From contig CAYNHQ010000004.1 in assembly GCA_964397255.1 (NCBI GenBank), forward strand, positions 118,363 to 182,362: 64,000 nucleotides of DNA, read 5' to 3'. Under the pieces are notes generated by a model. The model saw only the letters and a program-made list of their open reading frames with translations. It ran no database searches and had not been told where the DNA came from. A program made the position numbers and the translations under genes. Shown piece after piece: positions 12,361 through 62,037 of the stretch. The number at the start of each line of letters is the position of its first letter. Positions within the stretch are counted from its first letter, which is position 1. This stretch comes from an uncultured bacterium. GTDB taxonomy: Bacteria; Bdellovibrionota_G; JALEGL01; DATDPG01.

Positions 12361-12374
12361 TACAAGATCGTTGA

Positions 12375-16875: not shown

Positions 16876-16921
16876 CACCTCTCTACTAATCGCTCCGAAA
16901 AGAGCCTGAAAGGAGTTTTTC

Positions 16922-17932: not shown

Positions 17933-17941
17933 GCCAGCGAA

Positions 17942-18160
17942 CTACGACGCTAGTCGAAGTTGCGTGACAAAAACAGGATCCTTCACTTTCGAGCGGAGAG
18001 GTTTTTTAGCAGCGCGGAAGTAAAGACGAATAGCTTTGCGAAGACCGTCAATTGCATCTGGAATGGAATCACCCGCACTAGCGATATCAAGCTCGGGGCA
18101 GAGGGATGAGTATCTCTTCCCCTCTTTCCGGATGATAGCTGTGAATGTTTCGTTTCGCAT
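17942..18160 (-). CDS. hicB: HicB antitoxin
   Basis: 'MRNETFTAIIRKEGKRYSSLCPELDIASAGDSIPDAIDGLRKAIRLYF' matches the HicB/UPF0150 fold. The ORF-track TTG start at 18223 would run into the thrS leader, so the internal ATG at 18160 is preferred. Confidence 0.65.
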   Translation of the reverse strand: MRNETFTAIIRKEGKRYSSLCPELDIASAGDSIPDAIDGLRKAIRLYFRAAKKPLRSKVKDPVFVTQLRLAS

Positions 18161-18240
18161 ATTTTCAGTATAGGCCCCCCTCTTTTGGGGCGCAACGTTG
18201 CTAAACTTGAAGACTTGGGCCAATTTGAAGTTCGCCCCAA

Positions 18241-31956: not shown

Positions 31957-32033
31957 TGGTCGGGGCGGCGAGATTCGAACTCGCGACCCCTTGCACCCCA
32001 TGCAAGTGCGCTACCAGGCTGCGCCACGCCCCG
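31957..32033 (-). tRNA. tRNA-Pro (anticodon GGG)
   Basis: Minus-strand fold. Acceptor CGGGGCG/CGCCCCG, D-arm GCGC-AGCCTGGTA-GCGC, anticodon stem CTTGC/GCAAG with loop ATGGGGT, T-arm GCGAG-TTCGAAT-CTCGC. Discriminator A plus CCA. 77 nt. Confidence 0.85.
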
Positions 32034-32039
32034 ACTTGG
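31994..32039 (-). repeat. attL-like 46-nt direct repeat (tRNA-Pro nt 1-40 plus 6 nt upstream)
   Basis: Identical 46-mer CACCCCATGCAAGTGCGCTACCAGGCTGCGCCACGCCCCGACTTGG also at 37797-37842. Confidence 0.85.
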
Positions 32040-32107
32040 ATAATTATTTAATCGTTTTGGTGAGTTGTGTCTACGTTCGTCGATATGATTTTTGGTTCGT
32101 TTCGTCA

Positions 32108-32137
32108 TGGTATCAAATAGGTATCAATTTACGGTCG
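32108..32137 (+). repeat. Island-end arm-type repeat TGGTATCAAATAGGTATCAATTTACGGTCGC
   Basis: GGTATCA-N4-GGTATCA. A near-identical copy, TGGTATCAAATAGGTATCACTTTGGACGACGC, lies at 37624-37655 in the same orientation near the other island end. Confidence 0.5.
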
Positions 32138-33392: not shown

Positions 33393-33716
33393 TGGTCACC
33401 CCCATACACTGCCTTTACGTTGATTTTCAACAAATAGGTCGAGATCCGGAAATCAATTTACCCAAGTAAACCGAAAAATATTCCCCTGCCCTGCGTGTTG
33501 ATGATGGGACATTTGCGTTTCGTAATTTTCCACAATGATTTGCCAAAAAAATAGTGCTGGTCTCATAAATTCGAACTTGGTTCCATAGAGTGGACAATGC
33601 AAACGGCACTTAATCTTATTCTTGCGGTATACACCGCCATTGAACGTGGTCTCCAACCAACGGGCCATTCCTGGTAATTGGAAAGAATGGTCCCGTGTTT
33701 CTAAAACGAGGTATCG

Positions 33717-33887
33717 ATGAGTCAAAAACGAACACGACAGAATTTCAGCCAACACGAGCGCGAGCGTATCGTTCAGGAAATTACGGCCTCTGGTCTCACT
33801 CCTACAGCCTACGCCAAGACGCATGGACTCATACCTCGAAGTATCCGCAACACCTTTACGTTGTCGAGCGGCATAGGCGCGGCATAA
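33717..33887 (+). CDS. Short ORF with IS3-family transposase OrfA-like HTH (56 aa; possible remnant or excisionase-like)
   Basis: 'MSQKRTRQNFSQHERERIVQEITASGLTPTAYAKTHGLIPRSIRN' resembles the transposase N-terminal HTH (KR..FS.EFK...V......G.....A...GI....I..W). It is below the 60-aa ORF-track cutoff and was read manually. Confidence 0.3.
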   Translation: MSQKRTRQNFSQHERERIVQEITASGLTPTAYAKTHGLIPRSIRNTFTLSSGIGAA

Positions 33888-34138
33888 GCCAGCAGGCCCG
33901 TATAAAGGACGCTATTGGCGACAGCAAGGCGCATGGGCTGGACGGTGTTCCTCGACAGGTCGAGCGTGAGAATAAGCCAATTCCTCGCCGCCCACCTCCT
34001 TTCACCGAGCAAGATCTCTTCCAATACGTCATCAGAACCATCAACCAGCGTCCAGAGCGACGCATTTCGAACATCCCCTACATCCGTACCATCATCAACT
34101 GTTAGGGCGGCGGCAATCTTGATGAGTAGGAGATCACA

Positions 34139-34396
34139 GTGAAGAAATCTAATCGACTTGATATTGAATTGCCGCCAGCACACACACGTTCATATCAACC
34201 GTGGCCTGGTTCCAAGAGTATCCAGAAATTCAAAGAGGAGAGAGCCGCGCTGATGGAAAATGAGAACGGCATCCAGCCGAGCACGGCGGGTGCAATGCCA
34301 CAGATCAAAATACCTGGACTAACAACCACTGTGGGCGCGGTGCCCAAGATGTCTATCCCGAAGCCCCCAAAAGCAGCTATGAAGGGAAAACCTTAA
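34139..34396 (+). CDS. Hypothetical small protein (85 aa)
   Basis: ORF only. Confidence 0.25.
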   Translation: MKKSNRLDIELPPAHTRSYQPWPGSKSIQKFKEERAALMENENGIQPSTAGAMPQIKIPGLTTTVGAVPKMSIPKPPKAAMKGKP

Positions 34397-34417
34397 AGGA
34401 CGCTCGTAAAACAAGTG

Positions 34418-35084
34418 TTAAACGATCAAGACGTTTTGGTCGGAAAACGTCATTTCCGACCGCCTCATTTCCCTGATTTCGGCGGCGACAGCGCCGTGGG
34501 AGGCACCCGTTAGCTTGGCGATCTCGCGGTAGGTGTGCCCTTCGTTCGCGAGCGTACGGATCAAGTCCCCAGGACGGGTCCTGGGCCGTTCCCACACGTT
34601 TACCCTTGGCCTTTGCGTTCTGTAAGCCATTACGAACCTTTTCGCCGATCAGTTCACGTTCGAGCTGGGCTATCGCCGATATGATCGTGAAGAGCGCCTT
34701 ACCAATCAGGCTAAAAGTGTCTACCTTTTCGGTTAGGCTGACGAACGATACGTTACGCCGCTGGAACTCGTCCAGGGCATCCAGAAGGTGGCGTGTAGAC
34801 CGGGCGAATCGGCTAAACGAATAAACTACGACGGAGTCGAACTCGCCCCGTCTGACTGCTTCCATCAGACCATCGAGAGCGGGCCTGGACGTTTTTGCCC
34901 CGGAGATGTTCTCGTCCTCAAAGACCTGGTAGTCGGTGATGCCGGTGGTCTGGCAATAGGCTTCTAAGGCTCGTCGTTGGGCTTCTAGGCCATTCCCCTG
35001 GCGATCCATCGAGACGCGGCAATACAGCGCGGTTCGTTTTCCCTCCACAAAGACCAATATACCGCATATATGAAGTAGATTCAA
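34418..35084 (-). pseudogene. Serine recombinase (resolvase/invertase family) disrupted by a frameshift
   Basis: The catalytic domain 'ALYCRVSMDRQ...SGAKTSRPALDGL...VVYSFSRFARS...' is in frame 34377..35084. The HTH domain 'RPRVNVWERPRTRPGDLIRTLANEGHTYREIAKLTGASHGAV' is in a different frame, 34418..34630. The frame switch is near 34630. Confidence 0.55.
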
Positions 35085-35114
35085 TTATGTATTATACTGT
35101 GATACAGGGTACTT

Positions 35115-35324
35115 ATGGCCAAACTCATTCTCCAGAAAGTCTTGGATCGCAAAGGGATCACACAGTATCGATTTGCCAAGATGCTGGGCATTAGCCCTGG
35201 CGAGGCGTTTCGATGGTGCCAGGAGGGCTATAATCCGACGCTAAAGACGTTGATCCGTATAGCCGATGTTCTGAATGTAGGGCTGGATGACCTTGTTGAT
35301 CGCGCTAAAATCAGGCGCTCCTGA
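35115..35324 (+). CDS. XRE-family (Cro/CI-type) HTH transcriptional regulator
   Basis: 69 aa '...LDRKGITQYRFAKMLGISPGEAFRWCQEGYNPTLKTLIRIADVLNVGLDDL'. Confidence 0.7.
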   Translation: MAKLILQKVLDRKGITQYRFAKMLGISPGEAFRWCQEGYNPTLKTLIRIADVLNVGLDDLVDRAKIRRS

Positions 35325-35448
35325 CGGGGCATAATTGGAGCAGTTGGGACATTTTGGCCCACGAAGGCGCTATTATATCCTGTTGAATTCACAGAGATTT
35401 GTTTTGGCATCCTCCCTGCTCTATAAGTGCCTCGAAAGGGGTACGACT

Positions 35449-35895
35449 ATGAATTCGAAGTACATACATTTCTCGATTCTGATTGGTTCGCTCATTTTTG
35501 CCACCGCCGCCTTAAGTGAAGACAAGACGGACACTAAAGAGCTTCTCGGGACGAAGGAATGCAGTGTGGTAATCCCCAAAAACGGCCCTGAACCGACGGC
35601 TTTACGTCCCGAGATGGTCGATCAGAAATCAGGCGTAATTTTTGTCGAAGTCAAAAAGACCATCGGTCAAAACATTCAGTCATTCGGGCCATTACAAAAA
35701 TACTACGTCTTCGTGGCACTTAAAAAAGTAGGGCACGACAAAATCGAGTACAGCCTCGGAACTTATGACACGTTTAACGGAGCCAAATCGGCTGATGCGG
35801 CTAGTACGACCGTAGGAATTAACGACGACGCCAACGTTTCCAAGGAACGGGCTGTGGGTGTTTTCCAAGGTAAATCTACTCTATCCTGTCATTGA
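35449..35895 (+). CDS. Hypothetical secreted protein
   Basis: Signal peptide 'MNSKYIHFSILIGSLIFATAALS'. The start is ATG 35449, preceded by AAAGGGG. Confidence 0.45.
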   Translation: MNSKYIHFSILIGSLIFATAALSEDKTDTKELLGTKECSVVIPKNGPEPTALRPEMVDQKSGVIFVEVKKTIGQNIQSFGPLQKYYVFVALKKVGHDKIEYSLGTYDTFNGAKSADAASTTVGINDDANVSKERAVGVFQGKSTLSCH

Positions 35896-35901
35896 TAGTT
35901 T

Positions 35902-36312
35902 ATGTCTTTTAGGAAGTTCACTGCATTGTTAATTTTTTTCGTGGGTGGATCTGCACTCGCGGAGGAATTGGGAGCGCCTCGACTCCGCTGCAAAGCGAGT
36001 TACGGTATTGCAGGTCCATCTGGTCCCGCCGATATTCCCTTGAGGCCGTTCTTCCCTTCGTCAACTATCCGAGGACTCGTGAACGGAAAAGTCACAGACA
36101 CCGAAGTGTTTTTTGACGCTGTTTCGTTAGACAGCATAACGAAGAAAATTAACGACCGATATCCAGGCTATGCAACCATGGGGAAAATTGAGCCACTTCG
36201 CGTCGATTTTGCTAGGGGGATTGGCCAAGACTCCGAAATCGACCTGAGTATGGAGATTGATATCACGTCATCTGGTCACGACTCTTGTTCGCTAGTGAAA
36301 CCAAATTCCTAA
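35902..36312 (+). CDS. Hypothetical secreted protein
   Basis: Signal peptide 'MSFRKFTALLIFFVGGSALA'. Confidence 0.45.
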   Translation: MSFRKFTALLIFFVGGSALAEELGAPRLRCKASYGIAGPSGPADIPLRPFFPSSTIRGLVNGKVTDTEVFFDAVSLDSITKKINDRYPGYATMGKIEPLRVDFARGIGQDSEIDLSMEIDITSSGHDSCSLVKPNS

Positions 36313-36453
36313 AAAGCCCCATCGGTTTTACCTCTACCTATAGCTATTCCGAAGGGTATGAGAAAATTCGTGTTTCTGGCAAATTCTCATCAACTGGGCT
36401 ATTTACCGTAGGTCCTTTGCCGTTGAAACGAACGGCGAAAGGGTGGATAATGA

Positions 36454-36696
36454 ATGACGATGGTTCACGAAAATAAATTTCGATCTTCTTCAGAAGCTGA
36501 TGTTGACCTTTCTCGGCTGCCAGAGGGTCGGCTCGAAGAAATCCAGCAGGTCTTCAAAGTGCTCGGTATTGAAAAAGGGACATATCAGGGTGCCACTGAA
36601 TTGGGTAAACAGCTTCAAAAGGCGAGCAAACTACAATACGAAGGGATCGTCTTTACGACCAGTGGCAGTACGTCGTCGCCTCCCGAAACAAAGTAA
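36454..36696 (+). CDS. Hypothetical small protein (80 aa)
   Basis: ORF immediately upstream of the protease gene. Confidence 0.3.
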   Translation: MTMVHENKFRSSSEADVDLSRLPEGRLEEIQQVFKVLGIEKGTYQGATELGKQLQKASKLQYEGIVFTTSGSTSSPPETK

Positions 36697-36702
36697 ATTG
36701 CA

Positions 36703-37611
36703 ATGCCAAATTGGAGTGAGGTACTCAACGAGATCCAGCAATCGAAGCGTGTTGATGGTCTCGATTATGTTCGGCGCTCCTATCTGAAGAAACTCCACGA
36801 GAAACGGAACCGAAATATCATCTGCTACTATTCTGGCTGGCTACAAAAACCAGGAATCGGTGGCGTTGAAATCGACGACAACGACAAGAATGCCTTTATG
36901 GCGGCAATTCACAAACTTGACCGAGATAAAGGCTTGGATCTTCTGATCCACACCCCTGGTGGGCAGGTGGCGGCGACAGAGTCGATTGTCCACTACCTGC
37001 GAACGATGTTTAAGAACGACATCCAGGCGTTTATCCCACAGATTGCCATGTCGGCGGGGACGATGATCGCTTGTGCCTGTAGAAAAATTCACATGGGCAA
37101 ACAGTCGAACCTTGGGCCGATAGATCCACAATTTAGCGGTATTCCTGCGTATGGTGTCTTGGAGGAATTCAACCGTGCGGCCAAAGAAATCAAGGAAGAG
37201 CCAGCGAAGATCCCTCTCTGGCAGGTCATCATTGGCAAGTATCACCCGACATTCATTGGTGAGTGTGAAAATGCCATTGACTGGTCGCGGGACATCGCCT
37301 CCGAATGGTTGAAGGCAGGTATGTTCGAAGGGAAGAAGAACGCCCAAGAGTCTGCCGATAAAGTAGTCAAGGCCTTGACGGATCGTTCGGTGATGAAGAC
37401 CCATTCGAGGCATCTTGGTGCCGAGAAATGCAAGGAGATCGGCCTCGATATCGAGGATCTAGAGAAGGATAACGACCTACAGGATTTGATTCTGACGGTT
37501 CATCATGCCTATATGCACACGTTCTCGAACTCGTCGGCGATCAAGATAGTGGAAAATCATGAGGGCAGGGCAACTGTGATTCATGCCCAGATCCAAGTTC
37601 AAGCTCGGTAG
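36703..37611 (+). CDS. ClpP/crotonase-fold serine protease of the S49/SDH (serine dehydrogenase proteinase) family
   Basis: 'LDLLIHTPGGQVAATESI...IPQIAMSAGTMIACAC' is the ClpP-like catalytic Ser (A-M-S-A-G) context. 302 aa and cytoplasmic. Confidence 0.5.
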   Translation: MPNWSEVLNEIQQSKRVDGLDYVRRSYLKKLHEKRNRNIICYYSGWLQKPGIGGVEIDDNDKNAFMAAIHKLDRDKGLDLLIHTPGGQVAATESIVHYLRTMFKNDIQAFIPQIAMSAGTMIACACRKIHMGKQSNLGPIDPQFSGIPAYGVLEEFNRAAKEIKEEPAKIPLWQVIIGKYHPTFIGECENAIDWSRDIASEWLKAGMFEGKKNAQESADKVVKALTDRSVMKTHSRHLGAEKCKEIGLDIEDLEKDNDLQDLILTVHHAYMHTFSNSSAIKIVENHEGRATVIHAQIQVQAR

Positions 37612-37623
37612 TTTGCGAGTTTT

Positions 37624-37655
37624 TGGTATCAAATAGGTATCACTTTGGACGACGC
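37624..37655 (+). repeat. Second copy of the island-end arm-type repeat
   Basis: See 32108-32137. Confidence 0.5.
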
Positions 37656-37796
37656 ATCAACGACTTTTGTGCGTAGGGGAACGTATGTGGAACGAAGAGA
37701 GGAATTCCTTTTTGTTTTAACTGATTGTCTGCAAGCCCTTGTCGTGAAAGGGTTTTAGAGAAGCTGTGACTTTAGGCTGACTGAAAATTTCAATGC

Positions 37797-37842
37797 CACC
37801 CCATGCAAGTGCGCTACCAGGCTGCGCCACGCCCCGACTTGG
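37797..37842 (-). repeat. attR-like displaced tRNA-Pro 5'-half fragment (46 nt)
   Basis: Exact copy of 31994-32039. No tRNA 3' half follows, so this is a fragment rather than a gene. Confidence 0.85.
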
Positions 37843-37928
37843 GAAATCTTGTAATGGTTTTAACAAATTATGTCCAACAGAGCGCCCGCTTGCGAAAAGT
37901 AACGCCATGCACCATAATGCGACCGAGC

Positions 37929-45000: not shown

Positions 45001-47268
45001 TTATGTCTTCGGCGCGGGGACCAAATCGGAAAGGTGAAGCGTTCGATTCTCCAACATCTTCGCATAGAACGAAAAGTTCCTCGAAATCGCTTTCACATAA
45101 TTCCGTGTTTCTTCAAATGGAATGAACTCGATAAATGCTTCAGGAGGCAACTCTTTCCACCGAGCGATCCAGGCATCGACATGATTGGTTCCGGCATTGT
45201 AGGCCGCGAGAGCTAGGATGATGTTTCCTGAATAATGCTTCACGAGACTTCCAAGGTAGTGCGCGCCAAATTTAATGTTACGGGGGCCCACCGCAAGTAC
45301 ACTTCGATCGTACGATGGTTCATTTAGTTCTCTAGCCGCCAATTTCGCCGTATCTGGCATGAGCTGCATCAGTCCTACGGCTCCCGTGCGGCTCTCGGCA
45401 TCTTCACGAAACGCGCTTTCCTGCTTTATTAACGCGTAGATAAGAAGGGGATCGATTCCGTTGGCGGCGGCCTCCGCGCGAACGATGGGTTCCATTGGCC
45501 GGGGAAATAAAATTTCGAGGATGCGCCTCGAAACCGCGCCATTCGGATCGGGCGTAGCCAGTATGGCTCCAAGCGGAAAGGCCGACGAATAACTTCCGGA
45601 ATAGGCAAACAGCGTCGCGACATATTCCTGAGCCCCCGGATCAGGATCGAGATCGATTTCCTTCACCACCGCAGCGGCTGCAAAGGGAACTCCCGCGCTC
45701 AAAAAGGCCCTCGCACGATCAAACCGAAAGACATTCCACGGGTTACGGGGGGAATAATCCTTAATTGGGCCTGGGTCATAAAGAGAAGGAAGCCGGTCTG
45801 CCAAAAAAGAATAGAAAGAGAGGGGGGCCACTTTTGGAATCGAATCGAGATAACGTTTCGCCTCGGCCGAATTCCCCATTCGCTCATGAACCTTGGCTAG
45901 CCAGTAGAGATCCTGGGTGATGAGCGTGGTGTCTTGCACCTTGGCCCGGTCTGCTTCAAGCCACTCTTTTGCTTTCTTATCGTCATTGAGAACATAGGAG
46001 AGCCAGCCCACTTTGAAATGACATCGATCATAGAAATTGCTTCCCGAATGTTCATTCACCACTTTTTCAAAGTAAGCCCGGGCATCTTTCCAGGCCCCAC
46101 GATTTTCTGCGATGCGGCCAAGAAAATAATAAACATTCCCCGCTTGCGGATAAGTGGGGGAAGTTTCAATAATGTGTTCAAAAAGCTCTTGCGCCGGTTT
46201 GTCATGTTCATCCTCCCAAATGCTTCGCGCGAGAGAATAAAGGAAGTCAGGGGGGAGGCGCTTGGCATTCTTAACAAAATAAGCAGGGGGCCGGGGCTGA
46301 GCGAAATAAGATGTGGCCACTGTGCGAAGACGTGCGGCAGCTTTTCGAGCGGCAATGGAACCCGAATAATCCCGTTGAATTTTGACCAATAGCTCGATCG
46401 CCTCTTTGCTTTCTTTTCGATTCAATAGACGAACGGCGGTGGAAAATAGGGCGTCCTCTTCCGGCTCACGGGGTTTTAGCTCCGGAACCTCGGGTTTATA
46501 TGAAGGGCGACGGCTGGGGGGCGGCAGCGGGGGAAGGCCGCTCTCAAGAGAGGAAAGCTCTCGATTTCGAGGAAAGGAGTCTCTCGTTTTCTCCCAAAGT
46601 GCACGAGCTTCTTCCAGTTGGTTATCCCGTTTTAAGATTCCAATGAGTGTCGTCTGAAGAAACTCACGGTCGGCCGACTCGAGGTCATTTCCATCTTTCA
46701 GGAGCATGAATATGAGGTTTCTTGTTTCGGAGGGCCGCTTCAATGCCGTCAAACCCCGGATGTAACAGAGGGTGGCCTTTCGATATTCGCCGGTTTGCAG
46801 GTCACGAAAGACGGAAGAAGGAAAATCCAGCAGCTCATGAAGATGATCGCGAGCCTCGCGGCAAGGGATCGTCGCTCCCGCCGATTGATTTGCTTTTATG
46901 GCTCCCTCGCCCGTTAATCGGAGAGCCTGTGACCGATAGAAGAGCGCAGCGTCGGAGAGAAGGCTGGTGGCAGGTAGACCGGCAAGAATCGCCGCGGCGG
47001 TTCCAAAATGTTGGCGCTCTAATTCGATCAGGCCCTGCGCCAACAAAATCTCATCTTTTCGCGGCGGGGTGATGTTGGAAGCCTTCATTTCCGATTCAAG
47101 CCAGGCCGAAATCGGCGCGATCGTCGCCTCGGGTTGAGGTTTTGTGAGGTCGACCGTCAGAAATTTTGAAGTTCCCACTTCGGAAAAAAATGTGGGTATA
47201 GGAGGGGCTTGATCCGGTACCGACGATGCCGCTACGAGTAATGATAAAGAGACAATTCTTGAGATCAT
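45001..47268 (-). CDS. Soluble lytic murein transglycosylase (Slt family)
   Basis: Signal peptide. The long superhelical N-terminus precedes a C-terminal SLT catalytic motif '...ESAFREDAESRTGAVGLMQLMPDTA...AYNAG'. Confidence 0.8.
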   Translation of the reverse strand: MISRIVSLSLLVAASSVPDQAPPIPTFFSEVGTSKFLTVDLTKPQPEATIAPISAWLESEMKASNITPPRKDEILLAQGLIELERQHFGTAAAILAGLPATSLLSDAALFYRSQALRLTGEGAIKANQSAGATIPCREARDHLHELLDFPSSVFRDLQTGEYRKATLCYIRGLTALKRPSETRNLIFMLLKDGNDLESADREFLQTTLIGILKRDNQLEEARALWEKTRDSFPRNRELSSLESGLPPLPPPSRRPSYKPEVPELKPREPEEDALFSTAVRLLNRKESKEAIELLVKIQRDYSGSIAARKAAARLRTVATSYFAQPRPPAYFVKNAKRLPPDFLYSLARSIWEDEHDKPAQELFEHIIETSPTYPQAGNVYYFLGRIAENRGAWKDARAYFEKVVNEHSGSNFYDRCHFKVGWLSYVLNDDKKAKEWLEADRAKVQDTTLITQDLYWLAKVHERMGNSAEAKRYLDSIPKVAPLSFYSFLADRLPSLYDPGPIKDYSPRNPWNVFRFDRARAFLSAGVPFAAAAVVKEIDLDPDPGAQEYVATLFAYSGSYSSAFPLGAILATPDPNGAVSRRILEILFPRPMEPIVRAEAAANGIDPLLIYALIKQESAFREDAESRTGAVGLMQLMPDTAKLAARELNEPSYDRSVLAVGPRNIKFGAHYLGSLVKHYSGNIILALAAYNAGTNHVDAWIARWKELPPEAFIEFIPFEETRNYVKAISRNFSFYAKMLENRTLHLSDLVPAPKT

Positions 47269-47296
47269 TAGAGAGACAGGTTACACAATTAAGAAA

Positions 47297-48571
47297 ATGC
47301 TCAAAACAATCCTTCGAACTGTCCTAATCATATTGGTATTAGCCGGCGTCTTTTTCTTCGCTTTACGCATGTGGGAGGGAAAACGGGGCGCGCTTCCCAC
47401 GGCCACAGTGCCTGGGACACCTGAAGCGGCCATCACCGTTCGCCAGGTGAGTGTCGTGCCGACGGCGGAAGGCGCGCTAATCCAGATCGATGAAGTTTCC
47501 GGGCCCGGGTATACGATTACGCCGCTCGACACCGGTATTGGATTCGTTGTGGATATTCCCGGGGCAAAGGTGGGTATGCTCCAGAGTTCCATCCCGAATC
47601 CTCATCCGATGATCCGCAACATCGACGCTTCTCAAGTATTTGCCCAGGGCGCCGTGCATGCGAGGATTCGAGTCGAGCTCGCGCAGGAAGCAACGCATCG
47701 TGATCGGTTGCAGGCCTCCATCCTCTATATTGATGTTTTGTCCAAGGTCACGCCGACCGCAGCGCCTACGCCTGAATTAACTCCCATACCCAAACCAAAG
47801 CCAGTGGCGAAGAGTTCGAAGGCAAAAACGCATAAGCCCGTAGCCAAGAAGAAAGCGCCTTCGCGAAGAGCTTCACACACGGTAGCGACTTCGTCTCCCA
47901 AACGGTCAGCCCCGCCAAAACCTCGAGCTACACCCGCACCGATGGCGAAAGAAGGAGACTCCGATGCCTTGTTACGAGATTTAGGAATTGGCTCTGCCCC
48001 TCCGGCGGCTGCACCCGCACCTGAGCCGGTGGCTCCAGTGAAGGAACCTCCCCCTCCTGCTTTGGCTGCCGAGGCTGCGCCCCCTGCTGAGGCCACGCCC
48101 GCTGCGCCCGTGACGGATCTCGAATCCCTTTTTGTGGAGTCGCAGGGGGGAAAACCTGCCGAGGCCGCTCCGCCGCCTGCGGAGGAAGCCCCACCTAAAG
48201 TGGCCGCTATTCCACCCCCAGAAGCTGGAAAATTTGATTCGTCTCAAATCGCCCGGGATCTACCGGCGCTGACGGCACTCGCCGTGACCAGCGAAGGAGA
48301 GGCTACAGTTATCCGTTTCTCGCGTGAGCAATCCATACCTTTCAAAGTATTTAAAATGGTCAACCCGAATCGAATCACTGTCGATTTCAAAAATTCCGCG
48401 AATCATTTAAAGGCGAATTATCCCGCATTCCCTGGAACCAGGGTAAAGAAAGTGACGACGCAGAATTTTCCCGGCCAAGATGGGCTAACTCGCGTCACAT
48501 TTTTTATTGATGGTCTTCCGAAATATGAGTCGGCTACCGAAGGTAACGATCTCATACTGAAGTTGCCGTAG
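47297..48571 (+). CDS. AMIN-domain protein with Pro/Ala-rich linker
   Basis: N-terminal TM helix. One AMIN-like domain lies at ~aa 50-140 and another at the C-terminus ('ITVDFKNSANHLKANYPAFPGTRVKKVTTQNF...LTRVTFFIDGL'). Confidence 0.6.
   Translation: MLKTILRTVLIILVLAGVFFFALRMWEGKRGALPTATVPGTPEAAITVRQVSVVPTAEGALIQIDEVSGPGYTITPLDTGIGFVVDIPGAKVGMLQSSIPNPHPMIRNIDASQVFAQGAVHARIRVELAQEATHRDRLQASILYIDVLSKVTPTAAPTPELTPIPKPKPVAKSSKAKTHKPVAKKKAPSRRASHTVATSSPKRSAPPKPRATPAPMAKEGDSDALLRDLGIGSAPPAAAPAPEPVAPVKEPPPPALAAEAAPPAEATPAAPVTDLESLFVESQGGKPAEAAPPPAEEAPPKVAAIPPPEAGKFDSSQIARDLPALTALAVTSEGEATVIRFSREQSIPFKVFKMVNPNRITVDFKNSANHLKANYPAFPGTRVKKVTTQNFPGQDGLTRVTFFIDGLPKYESATEGNDLILKLP
48390..48571 (+). repeat. 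182-bp direct repeat, copy 1 (3' end of the AMIN-domain gene including its stop)
   Basis: 100% identical to 50015-50196. Confidence 0.9.
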
Positions 48572-48573
48572 AG

Positions 48574-48613
48574 GTATTCTGTATTTCGAATACTGAATTC
48601 CGTATTCCGAAAG
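48574..48613. repeat. GTATTC/GAATAC hexamer-rich palindromic element
   Basis: GTATTCTGTATTTCGAATACTGAATTCCGTATTCCGAAAG. A related element abuts the tRNA-Leu 3' end at 61901-61948. Confidence 0.5.
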
Positions 48614-48678
48614 TTCACCTGATTTCATCAACGATGTTACTACGGATATGGTCGGCCGGGCGATCTCGGCTTTAACCT

Positions 48679-48915
48679 TCACGCGGCTCGTTTTAATCGT
48701 TCCACACCTTCGACGACCAACATCCGCATGAGAGTCTGGTATGGCATGCCTTTTTGGGCCGCCAATTGTTTGAGTTCCGCTACGGTTTCCTCGGAAAGAT
48801 TGATGCTGGTGGGGTGTTTCTTTTGACTTTTTAGCTTTTTATAAGCGGAAACGATCTTCTTCGTTTCGAACGTTACCTTTTGATATCCCTTTTCACTCTT
48901 TACATAGTTCGGCAT
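48679..48915 (-). CDS. brnA: BrnA antitoxin
   Basis: 'MPNYVKSEKGYQKVTFETKKIVSAYKKLKSQ...INLSEETVAELKQLAAQKGMPYQTLMRMLV' (RHH). The start is the internal ATG of ORF 48679..49098. Confidence 0.6.
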   Translation of the reverse strand: MPNYVKSEKGYQKVTFETKKIVSAYKKLKSQKKHPTSINLSEETVAELKQLAAQKGMPYQTLMRMLVVEGVERLKRAA

Positions 48916-49237
48916 ATAGCTTTCTCTCCTTTCGGCTCGTATTGCGAATCGAAACGATCCGGATTCCAGTCCCTCGAATCGCAAAAACAACGAATACATG
49001 GCGCCCCGATTTGGTAACTCCCAGCAGCCCAAATCTTGGTTCATCCACTGAAGGTGAAACCTGCTCGCCCAAGATTCGAATGGCTTCGTTTTGCTCAAAA
49101 ACTTCTTCAGCTTCTATGCATGTAATCCCATGCTTTTTCAGGCTTTTGGTTTCATTTCCCTCATCCCACTCGTAGCGAAACTCATTCTGAGCGAGAATCC
49201 ACTCAGCGAGCCACGCTACAAATCGGAAATGCGCCAT
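48893..49237 (-). CDS. brnT: BrnT toxin (DUF497)
   Basis: 'FRYEWDEGNETKSLKKHGITCIEAEEVF...IRIVSIRNTSRKERKLY'. Confidence 0.7.
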   Translation of the reverse strand: MAHFRFVAWLAEWILAQNEFRYEWDEGNETKSLKKHGITCIEAEEVFEQNEAIRILGEQVSPSVDEPRFGLLGVTKSGRHVFVVFAIRGTGIRIVSIRNTSRKERKLYAELCKE

Positions 49238-49418
49238 CTGAGTCTAAGTATAGTGAAATTCACTATAGTAGTCAAAATGACTTAAGACTGATCTCTATCC
49301 AAGTTTGACGACAAGCTGGCGCAAGTCATTGCAAGCTTTAATTATTCTTCGCTTTTTTGTGTTGCGCGTTGCGCTAATTCGACCACTGTGGTACTAGCCG
49401 GTGCTTCCGGTGAGGATC

Positions 49419-50009
49419 ATGAAAACAGGCATTCTATTCATTCTAGGTTGTACCCTACTGTCATCGACTTCCATGGCCGAAAGACAGGTTTCAAAAGCCG
49501 GCCCCATCGGCAGGAACGTGACGCATTTTTACCATCCGACCTGCAATCTTTATCTGCGCGCGGAAAACGATCCAGAAGACGAGATCACCAAACGCCTCGA
49601 TCTTGGAGGCTCGACCACAACATTCCACCGTTCACCTCAGACGATTCAGAGATTGGCCGCTTCAAAGGGGTTCAGGCTAGACCTTCGTCGACCGTTGGCT
49701 GAAACGGAATCAACTGATCGAGACCTTGGGAAGTTGGTTCTCTCTCTTCAGAGTGGCCGCGAATCACGCGATCCTTTTAGTGGAAAAGATTACTCTGGCT
49801 ATCGAGCAAATGTTCAGATTCTCGAAATTGTCCAAAATGGAGAAGGGGGTTTTTCGTTCCACGTCCATTACAGCGAATACCAGAACGATTACATCCATCG
49901 GCTGGATCGGACGAGGCCGGAAACACCTTATGGCAAGCTGTTAGAACAAGCGTTTGAACGTATTCCCGACTGTGTAGTCACGGGCCTTCAAACGAATTCA
50001 AGAAAGTAA
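49419..50009 (+). CDS. Hypothetical secreted protein
   Basis: Signal peptide 'MKTGILFILGCTLLSSTSMA'. Confidence 0.45.
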   Translation: MKTGILFILGCTLLSSTSMAERQVSKAGPIGRNVTHFYHPTCNLYLRAENDPEDEITKRLDLGGSTTTFHRSPQTIQRLAASKGFRLDLRRPLAETESTDRDLGKLVLSLQSGRESRDPFSGKDYSGYRANVQILEIVQNGEGGFSFHVHYSEYQNDYIHRLDRTRPETPYGKLLEQAFERIPDCVVTGLQTNSRK

Positions 50010-50014
50010 TTTTT

Positions 50015-50196
50015 AAAATTCCGCGAATCATTTAAAGGCGAATTATCCCGCATTCCCTGGAACCAGGGTAAAGAAAGTGACGACGCAGAATTTTCCCGGC
50101 CAAGATGGGCTAACTCGCGTCACATTTTTTATTGATGGTCTTCCGAAATATGAGTCGGCTACCGAAGGTAACGATCTCATACTGAAGTTGCCGTAG
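50015..50196 (+). repeat. 182-bp direct repeat, copy 2 (displaced gene-3'-end duplicate)
   Basis: 100% identical to 48390-48571. Confidence 0.9.
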
Positions 50197-50481
50197 TTAA
50201 AAGAGAAACGTCGCAGAGAGAGAAGTGTAGCAATCGGAACTGTAGGTATGTGGGGTATTGCTACAACTCCTCTCCTCCGCGAATTCGTTTCACGCTTTGA
50301 GTAACGCATACTCTAGGCCACATACGAACAGAATTAATTGATTAATATTAATGACTTGTAAAATATGGCTCTTTACTACTCGAAAGTAGAGTTTCCTATA
50401 GGTGCCACCATCTTCGAAAAATAATTATTGATATTAAATACTTAAATCAGTTTATGAACTTTATTTGGCTTATGCTAAGAA

Positions 50482-53400
50482 TTGCATCATTTAGTGTGCT
50501 ATTCTCAGGGTTCATTGAACTTCAAACAGATCCATTTTGCCCAACATTATAAGTTGATCGCCCCACTAGGTCAGGGTGGGATGGGGAAAGTATTTGAAGC
50601 AGAAGACCTTCGTTTCCCCGGCCGACGGATTGCGCTGAAGCAATTGAATGAAAGTGATCCCATCTGGGTCGCCACATTTCGCCAAGAATTTTCCCTATTG
50701 GCCGCTTCGCAACATCCCAACATTCTCGATGTATACGAATTTGGCAGGGACGAGGAAACGGGGATCTCTTTTTATACGGCGGAATTGATTCGAGGAGAGT
50801 CTCTCGCCCATCGTCGATTGTCTTGGAGCGAGAGGGAGCTGATCGAAGTTTTACTTCACATCGGTCGTGCCCTTCGATTCCTCGGCAGTCGAAGCATTAT
50901 CCATGGGGACATCAAACCGGGAAATATTTTATGGGATGCGAGGAATGAGGAATATCGATTGGTTGATTTCGGTCTTGCGCGCACGCGGACGGGCCGAGAT
51001 GTGCATGGCCAATCGGGAACCCCTCTCTATATGGCGCCCGAAATTTGGGAAGGCAATAGGGCCGACAGTCGTTCAGACCTCTTTTCCCTCGGTGTCACGA
51101 TCGAGCGACTCGCTTCTCATACGGACCCGCCGACCGCTCTTCGCTCGTCCCTTCGAACCGTCATCACTCGCATGACCGAGAAAAATCCAGATGCGCGATT
51201 TCGCGATGCGGATGCGCTGCTGGAAAATCTTTGTCGTACGGTCGACCCATCATTGGCAAAGGAAACTGAGGCCACTCTTAATGCCTATTCGGTTTCCCCT
51301 CGGCTGAGTGGTCGGCAAGAAGTGCTGACAGAAATTGCACAAGAGTTACGGGAGGGGAGGTCGCCGGTGGTGGTAACGGGGGCTCCCGGAATGGGCAAAT
51401 CGAGGCTCCTCGTCGAAATATGTCGGCGATTCCAATTGGAGGGAATTTCCACCACACTCATTCACTGTCAGCTTCATCAGGCGTTTGCGGATCAGATTGG
51501 GCATGCGATATCCGAACAAGAGCATTTATTGGTACTGGACGATGTTGAGTTTCTTCCCGAGAAAGATCAGGAACTTCTTCTCGAGGTGGTAAGGCGAATC
51601 GGACGAGAGAAAAAAGAAAAATTCTCCATCCTCTTCAGCACTGAACAAATTGAGCACGCGCAAGAATTTCCCGGGTTGAAACATCATCTCCTCAAGCCGT
51701 TCTCCTCTGAAGAAGTACACGACTACATGGAATCGCTTGGGGTGGAAGTCCATCCGGAAGTTCTCCGTGTATTGGTCCGGCTTTCGGGAGGGGTTCCCCT
51801 CTTGCTCGAGTCGATGGTTCGCGATGGGCTGCCGAATGTGGAAATGTTTTCAAAAGTCGAAGCCGCAGAAGAATTGAATAAACTGCACCCCCCGAAAGAT
51901 TATGAACGAATTTGGTCCGAACGAATTTTCACACTTTCATCCGATGAACGGCGTCTCTTGGAGTTTCTCGCGATCGCTGACGCCCCATTGCCGATAAATT
52001 ATGGGGTCGACGACAGTCGCCAAAGCGCCCGCCTGATGTCTCTTCACCTCGCTCGCGGAGCGATTTTGGGTAATCGTTCCGCCTGCGTGATCGAGAGCCC
52101 TGCGGTAGCTGAATTGGCATTGAAGAATTTGTCTTCCGCCGACCTCCGGAATCGGCATCGGGAGGTAGCGGATCTCTTCGAAGGCGTCCTCTCCTCCGAA
52201 GCCGGACGCCCTTTGGAATTAATTACCCAGGTGGCGGTACATAGGTCTCTTTCAGGAGACCTGACCCAAGCCTCGCCTTTTCTTGCGGAAGCTCTAGGAC
52301 AATTTCTCAAATCGCATGCGAATGATGAAGGAATACTGATGTTGCGACGTATTCCGATCGAGGGGCATTGGAGCGGATCCGCTCGCTCCACGGCCGCAGA
52401 ACTTTGGGCTCGTGTAGGGGAATACGACCGCGCATTTGAACAATTGATCCAGCTCCAAAAAGAAAAGGGAGAATCGAAAGCCATCATTCTTCGTCGAATG
52501 GCTGATTTGCAACTCAAAAGGAGAAAGTTCAAAGAGGCTTTGGAACAAGTCACTGAAGCGGAAAATGAGATCTCTGCCCTCGAGGAGAACCAGAGAAAAG
52601 AAGAACGGGTTCACCTTCTCTTGGTTCGACAAACCATCGCGCTTTTACAAGGGGGCTACCCCCTGGTGGAAGCTACCGGCCGCGAAATCGAAAAGAAAGC
52701 TCCGGAAGGTATGGTGCGCGAGCGCGCTTCATCGCTCTGCATGCGTGGCCATGCAGCGCAGATGGAAGGGCGTCTACAAGAAGCAGGAAAAAAATTTCGC
52801 GCGGCACTTCAATTAGGAGAAGAAAGTAAAAACCTCTCGGCACAGTCAATGGCCTGGGGAAATCTCGGAAAGTTGGCACAGCATGAAAGCCGATTCGCGG
52901 ATGCGGAAAAGGATTTTAGAAAGGCCATGGAATTTGCGGAAAAAGCGCGAGATTATCTGGCCCTTGCCACGCTTCAGATGAACGTTTCGGCGCTTTGCCA
53001 AAAAATAGGAAAGTATCGTGAAGCCTGTGACTCGATTGAACGGAGCGTCGAAATTTATCGGCGACTTGGAAATCATGAAGAGTTTGCGCTGGCGCTTTAT
53101 ACGCGAGCCTCGCTTCGATTTTCTCTCTTTGGTTCCGATACAGCAGTGACCGACGATGTCCAAAACGCTTTGGAGTTGGCCGAAGCGGCTGGCAATGAGG
53201 ATGCTGCCGCATATGCGCATCTTTTATTGGCAAGAGTTTCAAAAAACTCCGCGAGCCGATCCCATTGGGATACCGCTCGCCGATCTTTTCGAAAACGAAT
53301 GGACTCCTCGGGTCTTCGCGAGGCTGCGTTGGTTGCACTGGAAGAGCACTTCGCTCCAGAAACGAAAGAACTCGAGATCGATGAAATGGATCTTGAGCAA

Positions 53401-55416
53401 CGCCTACGTTTTGCGGCGTGGAAGTTCGTCGAAGGAAAAGGGAGTCAAGAGGGAGAACTATTGAGCCCCGTGTTGCGGAAAATGGCCGATAAAAATCCCA
53501 ATCCGGAGCTGCTGGCTCAGTTTCTTTCTCTTCAGGTTCAATTCAAGAAGGGGCAACCAAGGGACCCAATGGCGGCTTCACAAGCCATTTTGATATTTGA
53601 AGGCTTGAGTGCTTCGCTGGGAGAAGAAGATCAAGAGGCCTATCTCTCGGTACGCCGAGTCGATGACTTGAAAAAATTAGTGACCGAAGATGATGAATTG
53701 CCAGGATCCCCTTCCGTGATTCACGCCGAGGTTGATGAGAAAGCGACGATTCAGGACTATAGAAAAAACTCGCTTTCAGAGGAAGACCTTATTACGACCC
53801 GCGCGGGGCGTGAGCTCCCTGCGAATTCACTCGGCAGACTTCTTGGAATGATCAAATTGCTAAATGATGAAATTGAATTTCAAAAAACGGTTGATCTTCT
53901 TCTCGATTTTGCCGTCGCGGAAACAAAGGCGGAGCGTGGGTTTTTTGTAACCGAAGAGGGCGACGATTTCCGCGTCGTTTCGGCCCGGAACATGAAGCAG
54001 CTGTGGATTCGTGAGCCCAACTCTCGGTTTAGCCGAACGGCCGTAAAAAAGGCGCTCCGGTCAGGCGCGACGATTACCGAAGGAGATGTAGCCGAGTCAA
54101 AATCTTGGAAAAATTCGCCCAGCCTTGTGAACCAAGAGGTTCGATCATTCCTGGCCGTTCCGTTGCGATCTCAAGAAAAAATTATGGGAGTTATTTATTT
54201 GGATCGCCGCAAGTCCCCGAAGGCGTTTAGCAGCACGGAAGTCCTCATTGTGGAAGCGCTGGCGGAACAAGGGAGCACGGCCCTTCGAAAGAATGAGTTG
54301 ATGAGCGAACTCAAAATTCAAGCGGAACGAATTGCGCAGTTCAATGGAAAATTGGAGGACGAACTTGAATCCAAAGAAACGCAAATTCAGCAGACGGAGA
54401 CCCTGTTACAAAAAACCGGTTCGGAAGATTCCATATTTCACCGCCACGCACAAATCATCGCGAAGAGTGATCGCATGCGAAACATTCTTCGTACGGTAGA
54501 GACCATTGCCGCCTCAAGATCCTATTGTTACATCTCTGGAGAGTCTGGAACTGGCAAGGAGTTGATTGCGCAAGCGTTGCACGAACGATCTCCTCAGGCT
54601 CGGGGCCCTTGGGTTCCGGTGCAATGCGGGAGCATTCCCGAAGATCTTTTTGACGCGCTCTTCTTTGGGCATGAAAAAGGGGCTTTCACTGGTGCGGATA
54701 AGGCGCGGGTCGGTTTTTTCGTGGCCGCGAATGGGGGAACTCTTTTTCTGGATGAGATAGACCAACTCAAGCCGGATCAACAAGCGAAACTGCTCCGGGC
54801 TCTTCAGGAATCGAAGGTCTTGCCGGTCGGCAAAACTGCAGAAGTTTCTTTCTCGATACGTGTCGTAACGGCATCCAACCGGGATCTCGAGAAGCTGAGA
54901 GCGGCGGGGGATTTTCGAGAGGATCTTTTTTATCGCCTCCATGTGATTCGGATCGACCTTCCTCCCTTACGCGAAAGAATCGAAGATATTCCGCTTCTCA
55001 TCCATCATTTTCTAAAGATGTCAGCGCTGACCCAAAAATACCCTCTGACAGTGGCGGATAATGCGCTTGAGGCTCTGATGAGATACCGCTGGCCGGGAAA
55101 TATACGCGAACTGAAAAATGAGATGGACCGAATTGTGGCACTCCTTCCGCTCTCTTCCGGAGGCAAACGTAGAATTAAGCTGGAGGACCTTTCGCCTGTG
55201 ATCCGTGGGGGATCCATGGGAGAGGCGATAAGCGATGATGAACCGTTTCATGAAGCAATTGATCGGTTTACGGCACAGCGAATTTTGCTTGTTCTCAAGA
55301 AGACCAAAGGGAACCGAACCAAGGCCGCGCAGCTCGTCGGAATGCACCGAAACGGGTTCAATCGAATGCTTCAGCGACTCAAAATTAAAGTCCTACCTCG
55401 TTCAGCTTATGATTAA
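50482..55416 (+). CDS. Multidomain regulator: Ser/Thr protein kinase + STAND/AAA ATPase + TPR repeats + GAF + sigma-54 interaction (AAA+) domain + Fis-type HTH
   Basis: Kinase: 'LGQGGMGKVFEA', 'HGDIKPGNILW', 'GTPLYMAPE'. P-loop 'VVTGAPGMGKSRLL'. TPR-like helical repeats span ~aa 600-1000. GAF domain lies at ~aa 1180-1290. EBP core 'ISGESGTGKELIA...EKGAFTGA...GGTLFLDEI'. C-terminal HTH 'KGNRTKAAQLVGMHRNGFNRMLQRL'. TTG or GTG start. Confidence 0.8.
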   Translation: MHHLVCYSQGSLNFKQIHFAQHYKLIAPLGQGGMGKVFEAEDLRFPGRRIALKQLNESDPIWVATFRQEFSLLAASQHPNILDVYEFGRDEETGISFYTAELIRGESLAHRRLSWSERELIEVLLHIGRALRFLGSRSIIHGDIKPGNILWDARNEEYRLVDFGLARTRTGRDVHGQSGTPLYMAPEIWEGNRADSRSDLFSLGVTIERLASHTDPPTALRSSLRTVITRMTEKNPDARFRDADALLENLCRTVDPSLAKETEATLNAYSVSPRLSGRQEVLTEIAQELREGRSPVVVTGAPGMGKSRLLVEICRRFQLEGISTTLIHCQLHQAFADQIGHAISEQEHLLVLDDVEFLPEKDQELLLEVVRRIGREKKEKFSILFSTEQIEHAQEFPGLKHHLLKPFSSEEVHDYMESLGVEVHPEVLRVLVRLSGGVPLLLESMVRDGLPNVEMFSKVEAAEELNKLHPPKDYERIWSERIFTLSSDERRLLEFLAIADAPLPINYGVDDSRQSARLMSLHLARGAILGNRSACVIESPAVAELALKNLSSADLRNRHREVADLFEGVLSSEAGRPLELITQVAVHRSLSGDLTQASPFLAEALGQFLKSHANDEGILMLRRIPIEGHWSGSARSTAAELWARVGEYDRAFEQLIQLQKEKGESKAIILRRMADLQLKRRKFKEALEQVTEAENEISALEENQRKEERVHLLLVRQTIALLQGGYPLVEATGREIEKKAPEGMVRERASSLCMRGHAAQMEGRLQEAGKKFRAALQLGEESKNLSAQSMAWGNLGKLAQHESRFADAEKDFRKAMEFAEKARDYLALATLQMNVSALCQKIGKYREACDSIERSVEIYRRLGNHEEFALALYTRASLRFSLFGSDTAVTDDVQNALELAEAAGNEDAAAYAHLLLARVSKNSASRSHWDTARRSFRKRMDSSGLREAALVALEEHFAPETKELEIDEMDLEQRLRFAAWKFVEGKGSQEGELLSPVLRKMADKNPNPELLAQFLSLQVQFKKGQPRDPMAASQAILIFEGLSASLGEEDQEAYLSVRRVDDLKKLVTEDDELPGSPSVIHAEVDEKATIQDYRKNSLSEEDLITTRAGRELPANSLGRLLGMIKLLNDEIEFQKTVDLLLDFAVAETKAERGFFVTEEGDDFRVVSARNMKQLWIREPNSRFSRTAVKKALRSGATITEGDVAESKSWKNSPSLVNQEVRSFLAVPLRSQEKIMGVIYLDRRKSPKAFSSTEVLIVEALAEQGSTALRKNELMSELKIQAERIAQFNGKLEDELESKETQIQQTETLLQKTGSEDSIFHRHAQIIAKSDRMRNILRTVETIAASRSYCYISGESGTGKELIAQALHERSPQARGPWVPVQCGSIPEDLFDALFFGHEKGAFTGADKARVGFFVAANGGTLFLDEIDQLKPDQQAKLLRALQESKVLPVGKTAEVSFSIRVVTASNRDLEKLRAAGDFREDLFYRLHVIRIDLPPLRERIEDIPLLIHHFLKMSALTQKYPLTVADNALEALMRYRWPGNIRELKNEMDRIVALLPLSSGGKRRIKLEDLSPVIRGGSMGEAISDDEPFHEAIDRFTAQRILLVLKKTKGNRTKAAQLVGMHRNGFNRMLQRLKIKVLPRSAYD

Positions 55417-61900: not shown

Positions 61901-61948
61901 ATTCCGAATTCTGAATTCTGTATTCCATATTCCGAATACTGAATTTGG
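61901..61948. repeat. GTATTC/GAATAC/GAATTC hexamer-rich element abutting the tRNA-Leu 3' end
   Basis: ATTCCGAATTCTGAATTCTGTATTCCATATTCCGAATACTGAATTTGG. It shares the blocks ATTCTGTATT and CGAATACTGAATT with 48574-48613. Confidence 0.5.
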
Positions 61949-62037
61949 TGGTGCCGAGGGGGGGAATTGAACCCCCACATCTCTTCCGAGACTGTGGATT
62001 TTGAGTCCACCGCGTCTGCCAGTTCCGCCACCTCGGC
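61949..62037 (-). tRNA. tRNA-Leu (anticodon CAA), class II with long variable arm
   Basis: Acceptor GCCGAGG/CCTCGGC, anticodon stem GTGGA/TCCAC with loop CTCAAAA, variable arm AGTCTCGGAAGAGATGT, T-arm GGGGG-TTCAATT-CCCCC. Discriminator A plus CCA. Confidence 0.8.

Follow-up and report, generated by a model that had tools for sequence, protein, structure and literature searches.

How does a toxin–antitoxin (TA) pair come to lie, together with a single further gene, between two identical copies of the end of a host gene? The question is raised by a 64-kb stretch of a 280-kb contig (CAYNHQ010000004.1) from an uncultured bacterium of the Bdellovibrionota_G lineage, called here the window, in which the 3′ end of a gene encoding an AMIN-domain protein is present twice, on either side of a 1.44-kb insert carrying a BrnT/BrnA (BrnTA) pair (hereafter the AMIN cassette). 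We found that this cassette is a fresh presence/absence polymorphism, the outcome of a very recent gain or loss. We propose, with about even confidence, that it is a non-autonomous integrative cassette resembling the cis-mobilizable elements (CIMEs), which would enter the chromosome by one crossover in its own copy of the gene end, with a recombinase acting in trans, and would be kept there by its BrnTA pair. The target gene and the repeat comprise the following features:

47297–48571, + strand: gene for the AMIN-domain protein, 424 aa (Pfam AMIN, E = 9.8e-13, domain C-terminal); intact in the filled allele.
48390–48571, + strand: left repeat copy (attL-like), exactly identical to 50015–50196; its right edge is the TAG stop codon.
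50015–50196, + strand: right repeat copy (attR-like), exactly identical to the left copy; an orphan 3′ fragment of the AMIN gene, analogous to the icdC pseudogene left by prophage e14 in Escherichia coli.
50197–50300, + strand: hairpin downstream of the AMIN gene (RNA fold −36.3 kcal/mol, z = −2.85).

The perfect duplication described in the initial annotation is exact: 48390–48571 and 50015–50196 agree over 182 bp at 100% identity, with 0 nt of extension on either side. Their starts lie 1,625 bp apart and the intervening DNA measures 1,443 bp (48572–50014). A general repeat search gives the same pair as 188 nt at 99% because four of the six preceding bases also agree (ATTTCA versus ATTTTT). 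The left copy corresponds to the final 179 coding nt and the TAG stop of the open reading frame (ORF) 47297–48571; in the reading frame of the right copy, base 50014 and the first two bases of the copy (50015–50016) form a TAA. A perfect repeat of 182 bp cannot be due to chance, and no dispersed direct repeat of at least 150 nt at 98% identity or more was found in 1.18 Mb from 80 unrelated bacterial loci.

The hairpin that follows the right copy looks like the native 3′ structure, or terminator, of the AMIN gene, and the cassette of the filled allele sits between the functional gene and this hairpin. The RNA folds at the two cassette junctions are unremarkable (z = −0.41 and +1.14). A megablast search of window positions 47000–51000 against plasmids gave no match, and neither did an exact-pattern scan of viral contigs with part of the AMIN repeat. 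The AMIN protein has no relatives among GTDB species genomes and one distant relative in JGI metagenomes (on contig L007, discussed below). Immediately downstream of the insertion site, a single ORF of 1,644 aa (50482–55416) encodes an unusually long signalling fusion that combines a Ser/Thr kinase, a STAND-type AAA ATPase, TPR repeats, a GAF domain, a sigma-54 activator AAA+ domain and a Fis-type helix-turn-helix (HTH).

Exact-protein look-ups placed the organism in four sibling runs (SRR12313477–80), represented by Logan contigs. One of these, the 6.8-kb contig L001 from SRR12313479, is the window minus exactly one repeat copy and the cassette, in other words the empty site that the initial annotation had proposed to look for. 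Its positions 1–2486 match window positions 46086–48571 at 100%, and positions 2299–6839 match 50009–54549 with two mismatches, both located in the six bases that precede the repeat. In L001 the AMIN stop codon is directly followed by the hairpin and then by the downstream kinase/sigma-54 activator gene. The filled allele is represented by L002, an independent assembly from SRR12313478 that is identical (100%) to window positions 47962–49676 and covers the left junction; its path runs unbranched from unique AMIN sequence through the repeat, brnA and brnT to the start of the third gene of the cassette. The unit of insertion or deletion suggested in the initial annotation is thus the one seen in L001, and the proposal that the event is recent agrees with the absence of mismatches between the two copies and with the absence of single-nucleotide polymorphisms (SNPs) over the population contigs. 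Six contigs from the four runs, together about 17.9 kb, are 100% identical to the window without a SNP and differ from it only by the cassette unit. Since exact empty and filled contigs occur without SNPs, both alleles coexist in a clonal population. The same 424-aa AMIN protein is encoded by the empty and the filled alleles, and the gene end has therefore been regenerated.

Three features of these data weigh against our proposal, as do further points raised below. The junction from the cassette through the right copy to the downstream DNA was seen only in the NCBI contig, which belongs to a metagenome-assembled genome (MAG); the k = 31 Logan contigs that cross the 182-bp repeat each show one path per run; and a free circle together with an empty chromosome would yield an identical assembly graph. 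The third gene of the cassette gave no record in the Logan look-ups, so that no confirmation of the right junction came from there. It could thus be argued that the assembler threaded together an empty chromosome and a separate circle sharing the 182 bp, given that both arrangements produce the same graph when the repeat exceeds k, that the path from cassette to repeat to downstream DNA exists only in the MAG and that L001 proves the empty path. We consider such an artefact very improbable. A 1.6-kb circle with a TA pair, a lipoprotein-like ORF and no replication gene (none was found among the cassette ORFs with Pfam and PHROG profiles) is not a credible replicon, in L002 the unique AMIN sequence, the repeat and the cassette follow one another on an unbranched path, and both junction sequences must occur in real reads. 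Gene-end duplications, moreover, are real and occur repeatedly in this genome and in related contigs, as described below.

What, then, does the cassette carry? Apart from a short-period repeat at its left end, which is treated further on, its cargo comprises:

48679–48915, − strand: BrnA-type ribbon-helix-helix (RHH) antitoxin gene, 78 aa (CopG_antitoxin, 29.5 bits, cut-off 28).
48893–49237, − strand: brnT toxin gene, 114 aa (PF04365, E = 1e-19, 71 bits, cut-off 34.5).
49247–49275, − strand: promoter-like site TTGACT-17-TATACT (sigma-70-like), from a consensus scan.
49419–50009, + strand: orphan lipoprotein-like ORF, 196 aa from ATG 49419, with a signal peptide and a lipobox-like ILGC.

The antitoxin gene overlaps brnT by 23 nt; its product, also called on L002, reaches 19.2 bits with the BrnA_antitoxin profile, for a cut-off of 26.1. 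Homologues of the toxin are 61–75% identical to it and every one is 114 aa long. A perfect palindrome, TATAGTGAAATTCACTATA (49249–49267), overlaps the brnTA promoter and is its predicted operator; palindrome and promoter are both kept in a 75%-identical module on contig L088, from another metagenome. The lipoprotein-like ORF is divergent from brnTA and has two other possible starts (GTG 49401 and ATG 49473). It has no Pfam or PHROG match, only itself matched among 5.8 billion proteins, and its AlphaFold2 model is uninformative (pLDDT 33). The non-coding gaps of the cassette measure 107 nt and 180 nt.

No integrase, recombinase or transposase was detected among the cassette ORFs with Pfam and PHROG profiles. 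The ends of the cassette, AGGTATTC... and ...GTAATTTTT, are not inverted repeats. A transposon or insertion sequence (IS) was rejected on these grounds, that is, no transposase, no terminal inverted repeats and a duplication of 182 bp where 2–15 bp would be expected. The GC content of the cassette (45–49%, versus 49% for the genome) is host-like. A foreign origin could not be argued from composition, since the GC drop begins at the AMIN domain (~48300) and not at the edge of the repeat, which makes it uninformative.

Is the duplicated AMIN gene end unique in the window? Two other loci present duplicated gene ends:

10143–18451, + strand: array of thrS 5′ fragments (~10143–10297, 14901–15044, 16062–16127 and 16671–16904).
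31957–37874, − strand: tRNA-Pro(GGG) island (tRNA at 31957–32033, repeat at 37797–37842).

The resident thrS starts at 18241, with its own 5′ end from 18219, and the four fragments lie upstream of it. They range from 61 to ~230 nt and are 85–97% identical among themselves and to thrS. The cargo between them consists of a PIN/VapC pair, an HTH_3 antitoxin-like gene, a second BrnTA pair and a HicA pair. Every fragment opens at the same position (ATTTGAAGTTCGC) and an invariant CGTACATTCGG is common to all, and the units E1 and E2 have in common a 27-nt right end (ACAGTTTGATCAAATCCGGGGAAGGCG) with a TTTGATCAAA palindrome. The common boundary, core and 27-nt end suggest that the fragments could correspond to the attachment (att) sites of one element family. 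No integrase is present in the array; for this genome, the search for integrases covered the 64 kb of the window. In the nearest relatives (62–72% identity in ThrRS, from MAGs labelled Bdellovibrionales, Deltaproteobacteria or Pseudomonadota), a tRNA-Val gene is located 90–150 bp upstream of thrS, and none of 39 related or unrelated thrS loci has duplicates of the thrS 5′ end. The short tRNA-Val–thrS gap of the relatives, without duplicates, identifies the 12.4 kb present there in the window as inserted material. The BrnT and HicA of the array, looked up in Logan for variation of the array in the population, gave no record, and an exact-pattern scan of viral contigs with the thrS core gave no match.

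Several further observations concern the array. The stop codons of its cargo genes abut the thrS fragments. At its far end, the oldest fragment runs into frameshifted pieces (10165–10640; …SYFIRRNDGNVLVDSPRY…, …GHTQGHIVLLYKEDYLFTGDH…) that, judged by eye, resemble a metallo-beta-lactamase-fold protein and may be a fusion or a pseudogene. Beside the tRNA-Val gene, in the position expected for an integrase, lies an ORF of 431 aa (5958–7253); as a hidden integrase it was rejected, as it has no Pfam or PHROG match and looks like a secreted hypothetical protein. It is followed by genes for an EEP-family nuclease (7999–9330) and an SNase-like nuclease (9408–10034). In L009, the nearest relative with flanking DNA, the last ~17 nt of the tRNA-Val gene (CCCAGTCGCGCCTACCA; 8239–8256) are repeated ~180 bp downstream (8439–8455), ahead of an ORF encoding a 357-aa secreted protein that is inserted between tRNA-Val and thrS. 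This is the same intergenic hotspot as in the window, used via the 3′ end of the tRNA.

The second locus is a third gene-end duplication, overlooked in the initial annotation, and it does have an integrase. The 5.7-kb island carries a tyrosine integrase gene (32124–33392) beside the intact tRNA-Pro gene and a resolvase gene (34377–35084). Its repeat corresponds to the first 40 nt of the tRNA and 6 nt upstream; the duplicated block thus consists of a diverged upstream region and the tRNA's 5′ half, up to and including the anticodon loop, and not of the usual 3′ part. Apart from this duplication of the 5′ half, it is an ordinary integrase-bearing island.

The initial annotation had seen in the AMIN cassette a mirror of the thrS array and, from there, one recurring insertion mechanism that each time regenerates an intact gene end. 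The likeness in geometry is real: in both, a convergent TA pair comes after a gene fragment on the + strand, and the unit is placed upstream of the resident copy; a common mechanism did not follow from it. The two BrnTA pairs are only 31% identical, the thrS copies are old (85–97% identity) and there is no recombinase gene in either structure. A comparison of the repeat edge with the thrS core, suggested in the initial annotation, and one with the tRNA-Pro att site revealed no common recombination motif (local alignments of the AMIN repeat and its flanks gave Smith–Waterman scores of 15–16, for a shuffle mean of 16). Regeneration of the gene end applies to the AMIN gene, with its identical protein in both alleles, and not to thrS, where the pieces borne by the elements are mostly the part not needed to rebuild the gene. 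A single mechanism common to both loci is plausible but not demonstrated.

The divergence of these other repeats bears on the direction of the event. All other gene-end repeats of the window have diverged (85–97% identity); because the AMIN copies have not, a recent gain is favoured over a loss. Gain and RecA-mediated deletion from an older filled allele nevertheless both fit the polymorphism, which is a further point against our proposal. On the second account, the filled allele would be ancestral, possibly a TA-protected remnant of a decayed integrase-bearing island, with its copies kept alike by gene conversion, and the empty allele in SRR12313479 would be a fresh deletion. A deletion between 182-bp direct repeats would indeed yield the exact structure of L001 with identical flanks, the thrS array testifies to a long persistence of TA-containing remnants in this genome, and tycheposon islands also contain degenerate remnants between partial target copies (10.1101/2020.12.28.424599). 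We nonetheless regard an old insertion as distinctly unlikely, considering the 0 mismatches over 182 bp and the undecayed edges, against 85–97% identity in the other gene-end repeats of the window. The gaps of 107 nt and 180 nt leave no room for an integrase pseudogene, and the BrnTA pair should select against loss. The relative represented by L007 has no insert at its AMIN gene (51% identity), although it is too distant to decide the matter.

Do similar cassettes exist elsewhere? L007, the JGI contig of this relative, harbours the 51%-identical AMIN homologue without an insert at its end. Directly downstream of this homologue, the 42-nt 5′ half of a tRNA-Leu(CAA) gene is duplicated, with one mismatch (459–500 and 1664–1749), around a 1.2-kb cassette with one ORF, for a 303-aa secreted protein, and no integrase. 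L088, which encodes the closest BrnT homologue (75% identity), resembles the window at the DNA level only in the promoter/operator, brnT and brnA. There, BrnTA is flanked by a 28-nt direct repeat (19–46 and 879–906, 89% identity), with weaker similarity continuing to the end of the contig; by our own estimate, about 1e-5 such repeats are expected by chance in this 3.3-kb contig. The repeated segment, for which Rfam gave no match on L088, could be the ribosome-binding site and first codons of a minus-strand gene, or the 3′ end of an RNA. Four other BrnT homologue loci (63–68% identity) have no flanking repeats, which again speaks against our proposal; one of them is beside an IS21 element and one within an element with a large serine recombinase. 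No kinship was detected between the cargoes of the window cassettes, L007 and L009. Small integrase-less cassettes with gene-end repeats therefore recur, without being a fixed trait of this TA family. A literature search found no report of TA loci flanked by gene-end repeats.

This recurrence also bears on whether the AMIN cassette could be a one-off capture of foreign DNA at a staggered break, in which nicks 182 bp apart would have been filled in without any mobile-element mechanism. The abrupt edges of the duplication and a cargo without terminal inverted repeats, recombinase or transposase are what such a capture would leave. The coincidence of the right edge with a stop codon would then be due to chance, about 1 in several hundred, and the same architecture recurs at thrS (four times), tRNA-Pro, L007 and L088. 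Bacterial transposition, moreover, is not known to produce target duplications of 182 bp. We find this scenario hardly credible.

One further feature distinguishes the left end of the cargo, namely an array with a 7-nt period (heptad array), of which the window contains only two:

48574–48609, no strand: heptad array, consensus GTATTCC/WATTCYG (TRF period 7, 5.1 copies), at the left end of the cargo.
61901–61945, no strand: second heptad array, identical in consensus; tRNA-Leu(CAA) (61949–62037, − strand) has its 3′ end 3 nt away.

The first array begins 2 nt past the AMIN stop codon and scores 27/28 in a custom scan, for a null maximum of 22. The palindromic GTATTC/GAATAC element noted in the initial annotation is real and forms part of it, as GTATTC-N8-GAATAC at 48574–48593; its RNA fold is not unusual (z = −0.41). 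This motif is confined to the two arrays in the window, where 0.04 occurrences would be expected. The heptad arrays are not present at the loci of the relatives, and they may be protein-binding iterons. No integrase was found near the second array and tRNA-Leu(CAA); a 420-aa ORF beside this tRNA was considered as an integrase and rejected, being pilin-like.

How could the cassette have entered the AMIN gene? In the mechanism that we propose, the mobile unit would be 1,625 bp long, made of one 182-bp copy of the AMIN 3′ end and the 1,443 bp of cargo. As a putative circle, it would enter the chromosome by one reciprocal crossover between gene-end copies (Campbell-type), after which the left copy would complete the AMIN gene and the right copy would become an orphan fragment joined to the native hairpin. 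The crossover would be carried out by a site-specific recombinase, presumably of the tyrosine type, provided in trans by the genome or by a helper element. The identical copies would additionally permit RecA-mediated excision, and BrnTA, with a promoter that may be autoregulated, would disfavour loss by acting as an addiction module. We favour a recombinase acting in trans because the boundary at the stop codon matches that of e14, because the same genome holds a real integrase-bearing island, because related cassettes have short flanking repeats and because the thrS copies behave like att sites.

To the points against this proposal already given, others must be added. No integrase was found in or beside the AMIN cassette with Pfam and PHROG profiles, and the sole tyrosine integrase of the window belongs to the tRNA-Pro island, whose att is unlike the AMIN repeat. 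Moreover, the 182-bp identity, the abrupt edges, the host-like GC content and the lineage-restricted orphan cargo fit a home-grown, homology-driven event equally well. In such an event, a 1,625-bp circle or a permuted fragment with 182 bp of AMIN homology would be gained and lost by homologous recombination alone; such a circle might be excised from a filled genome and enter a recipient cell via transformation or vesicles. A homology-armed cassette that depends only on RecA is a serious rival, which we hold to be possible rather than probable. Identical copies of 182 bp are ample for RecA. This alternative also accommodates a cassette without a recombinase gene, the lack of a motif common to the AMIN, thrS and tRNA-Pro sites, an ORFan cargo of this lineage with host-like composition, and presence/absence within a clonal population. 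Furthermore, thrS pieces that are mostly unneeded for rebuilding the gene are what one expects of a homology arm and not of a repair fragment. RecA alone, however, accounts neither for a repeat edge that coincides with the stop codon, as it does in e14/icdC, nor for the origin of the first circle with a gene fragment. For RecA, repeats of 28–46 nt (L088, L007, tRNA-Pro) are short, as is the thrS copy of 61 nt, and the single outer boundary of the thrS copies and the 27-nt end common to E1 and E2 also speak against it.

A broader hypothesis, which we consider rather unlikely, is that this lineage may harbour integrase-free addiction mini-cassettes, for which a copy of a host gene end would be the sole targeting device. 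Moved by RecA or by a novel recombinase that might recognize the heptads, such cassettes would accumulate in TA arrays reminiscent of integrons, the thrS array being an example, and with the AMIN cassette one of them would for the first time have been observed as a polymorphism.

If the integration of a CIME-like cassette by a recombinase acting in trans is true, the AMIN locus would be a minimal integrative element caught in the act: it comprises 1.4 kb of DNA, lacks a recombinase and is flanked by a perfect att-like duplication of 182 bp, and both alleles are present in one clonal natural population. TA pairs could then be mobile as very small att-flanked passengers, restoring the gene into which they insert, which could explain TA-rich arrays beside housekeeping genes in genomes without integrons. 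Both alleles and four read sets are available, which makes the choice between a trans-acting integrase and RecA directly testable. In genome annotation, orphan gene-end fragments would mark small mobile cassettes, and island finders that require an integrase and at least 2 kb, such as TIGER (PMC7192596), will miss such cassettes.

How does the AMIN cassette compare with known systems? As a predicted TA locus, it resembles type II BrnT/BrnA modules in its PF04365 domain, its overlapping downstream RHH antitoxin gene and its palindromic operator at the promoter. It differs from them in that the antitoxin scores as CopG_antitoxin and not as BrnA_antitoxin.

The thrS units recall the cassette arrays of chromosomal integrons rich in TA cassettes, with compact units of 0.6–1.6 kb, often encoding TA pairs, arranged head to tail with a repeated element resembling a recombination site between them. 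In contrast to integrons, there is no IntI, attI or attC here, the repeated element consists of part of a host gene and the cassettes have their own promoters. An integron cassette was thus rejected, as no integrase adjoins the AMIN locus or the thrS array and the boundary is a coding host-gene fragment without an attC-like fold. A closer parallel is provided by tandem arrays of integrative elements at tRNA genes and in tycheposon islands, in which, as at thrS, units are split only by partial copies of the target and remnants are present (10.1101/2020.12.28.424599; PMC7192596); repeated integration is known to give such arrays (PMC7192596). Tycheposons encode tyrosine or serine recombinases and often replication genes, whereas TA pairs and small cargo are all that is found in the thrS units and in the AMIN cassette.

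CIMEs are defined as elements in which attL and attR persist after the genes for integration and transfer have been lost (PMC6323972). Similarly, no integrase or transfer genes were found in the AMIN cassette with Pfam and PHROG profiles, the cassette is bounded by direct repeats holding the end of the target gene, and tandem accretions exist in the same genome (the thrS array). Known CIMEs, by contrast, were recognized via a cognate integrase-bearing integrative and conjugative element (ICE) or integrative and mobilizable element (IME) using the same att site, and none was found in the window. By analogy, and with repeats that are att-like only, CIME appears to be the closest category for the AMIN cassette, which is far smaller than described CIMEs.

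The anatomy of the repeat itself is the classical one of an attP carrying a gene fragment, as in e14/icd, a parallel that the initial annotation had overlooked. Integrative elements that target coding sequences usually have part of the target gene in their attP, by which the gene is restored upon integration; the repeat blocks of integrative elements, below 100 bp for tRNA targets, reach ~250 bp for coding sequences such as icd (PMC7192596). The e14/icdC locus has been described (PMC13626634), and direct inspection of this cryptic prophage, integrated in the 3′ end of icd in E. coli MG1655, showed that the icd/icdC block starts within icd, ends at the stop codon and measures 165 bp, with ~92% identity. 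As in e14 at icd/icdC (and in phage 21), the repeat block of the AMIN cassette ends exactly at the stop codon of the target, the gene is completed by one copy while, at the opposite end of the insert, the second copy is left as an orphan fragment of the C-terminus, and excision restores a single gene. Gene-end repeats, an exact empty site and a preserved target gene, all typical of e14/icd-type elements, were found at the AMIN locus; the integrase gene that such elements contain near one end was not. Indeed, e14 is 15.2 kb long with intE and xisE, whereas the AMIN cassette, about ten times smaller (1.44 kb), has neither gene, and its copies are 100% identical where those of e14 are ~92% identical. 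By analogy, the AMIN cassette is thus best described as an e14/icd-like architecture reduced to a TA pair and one gene, free of integrase and caught while polymorphic.

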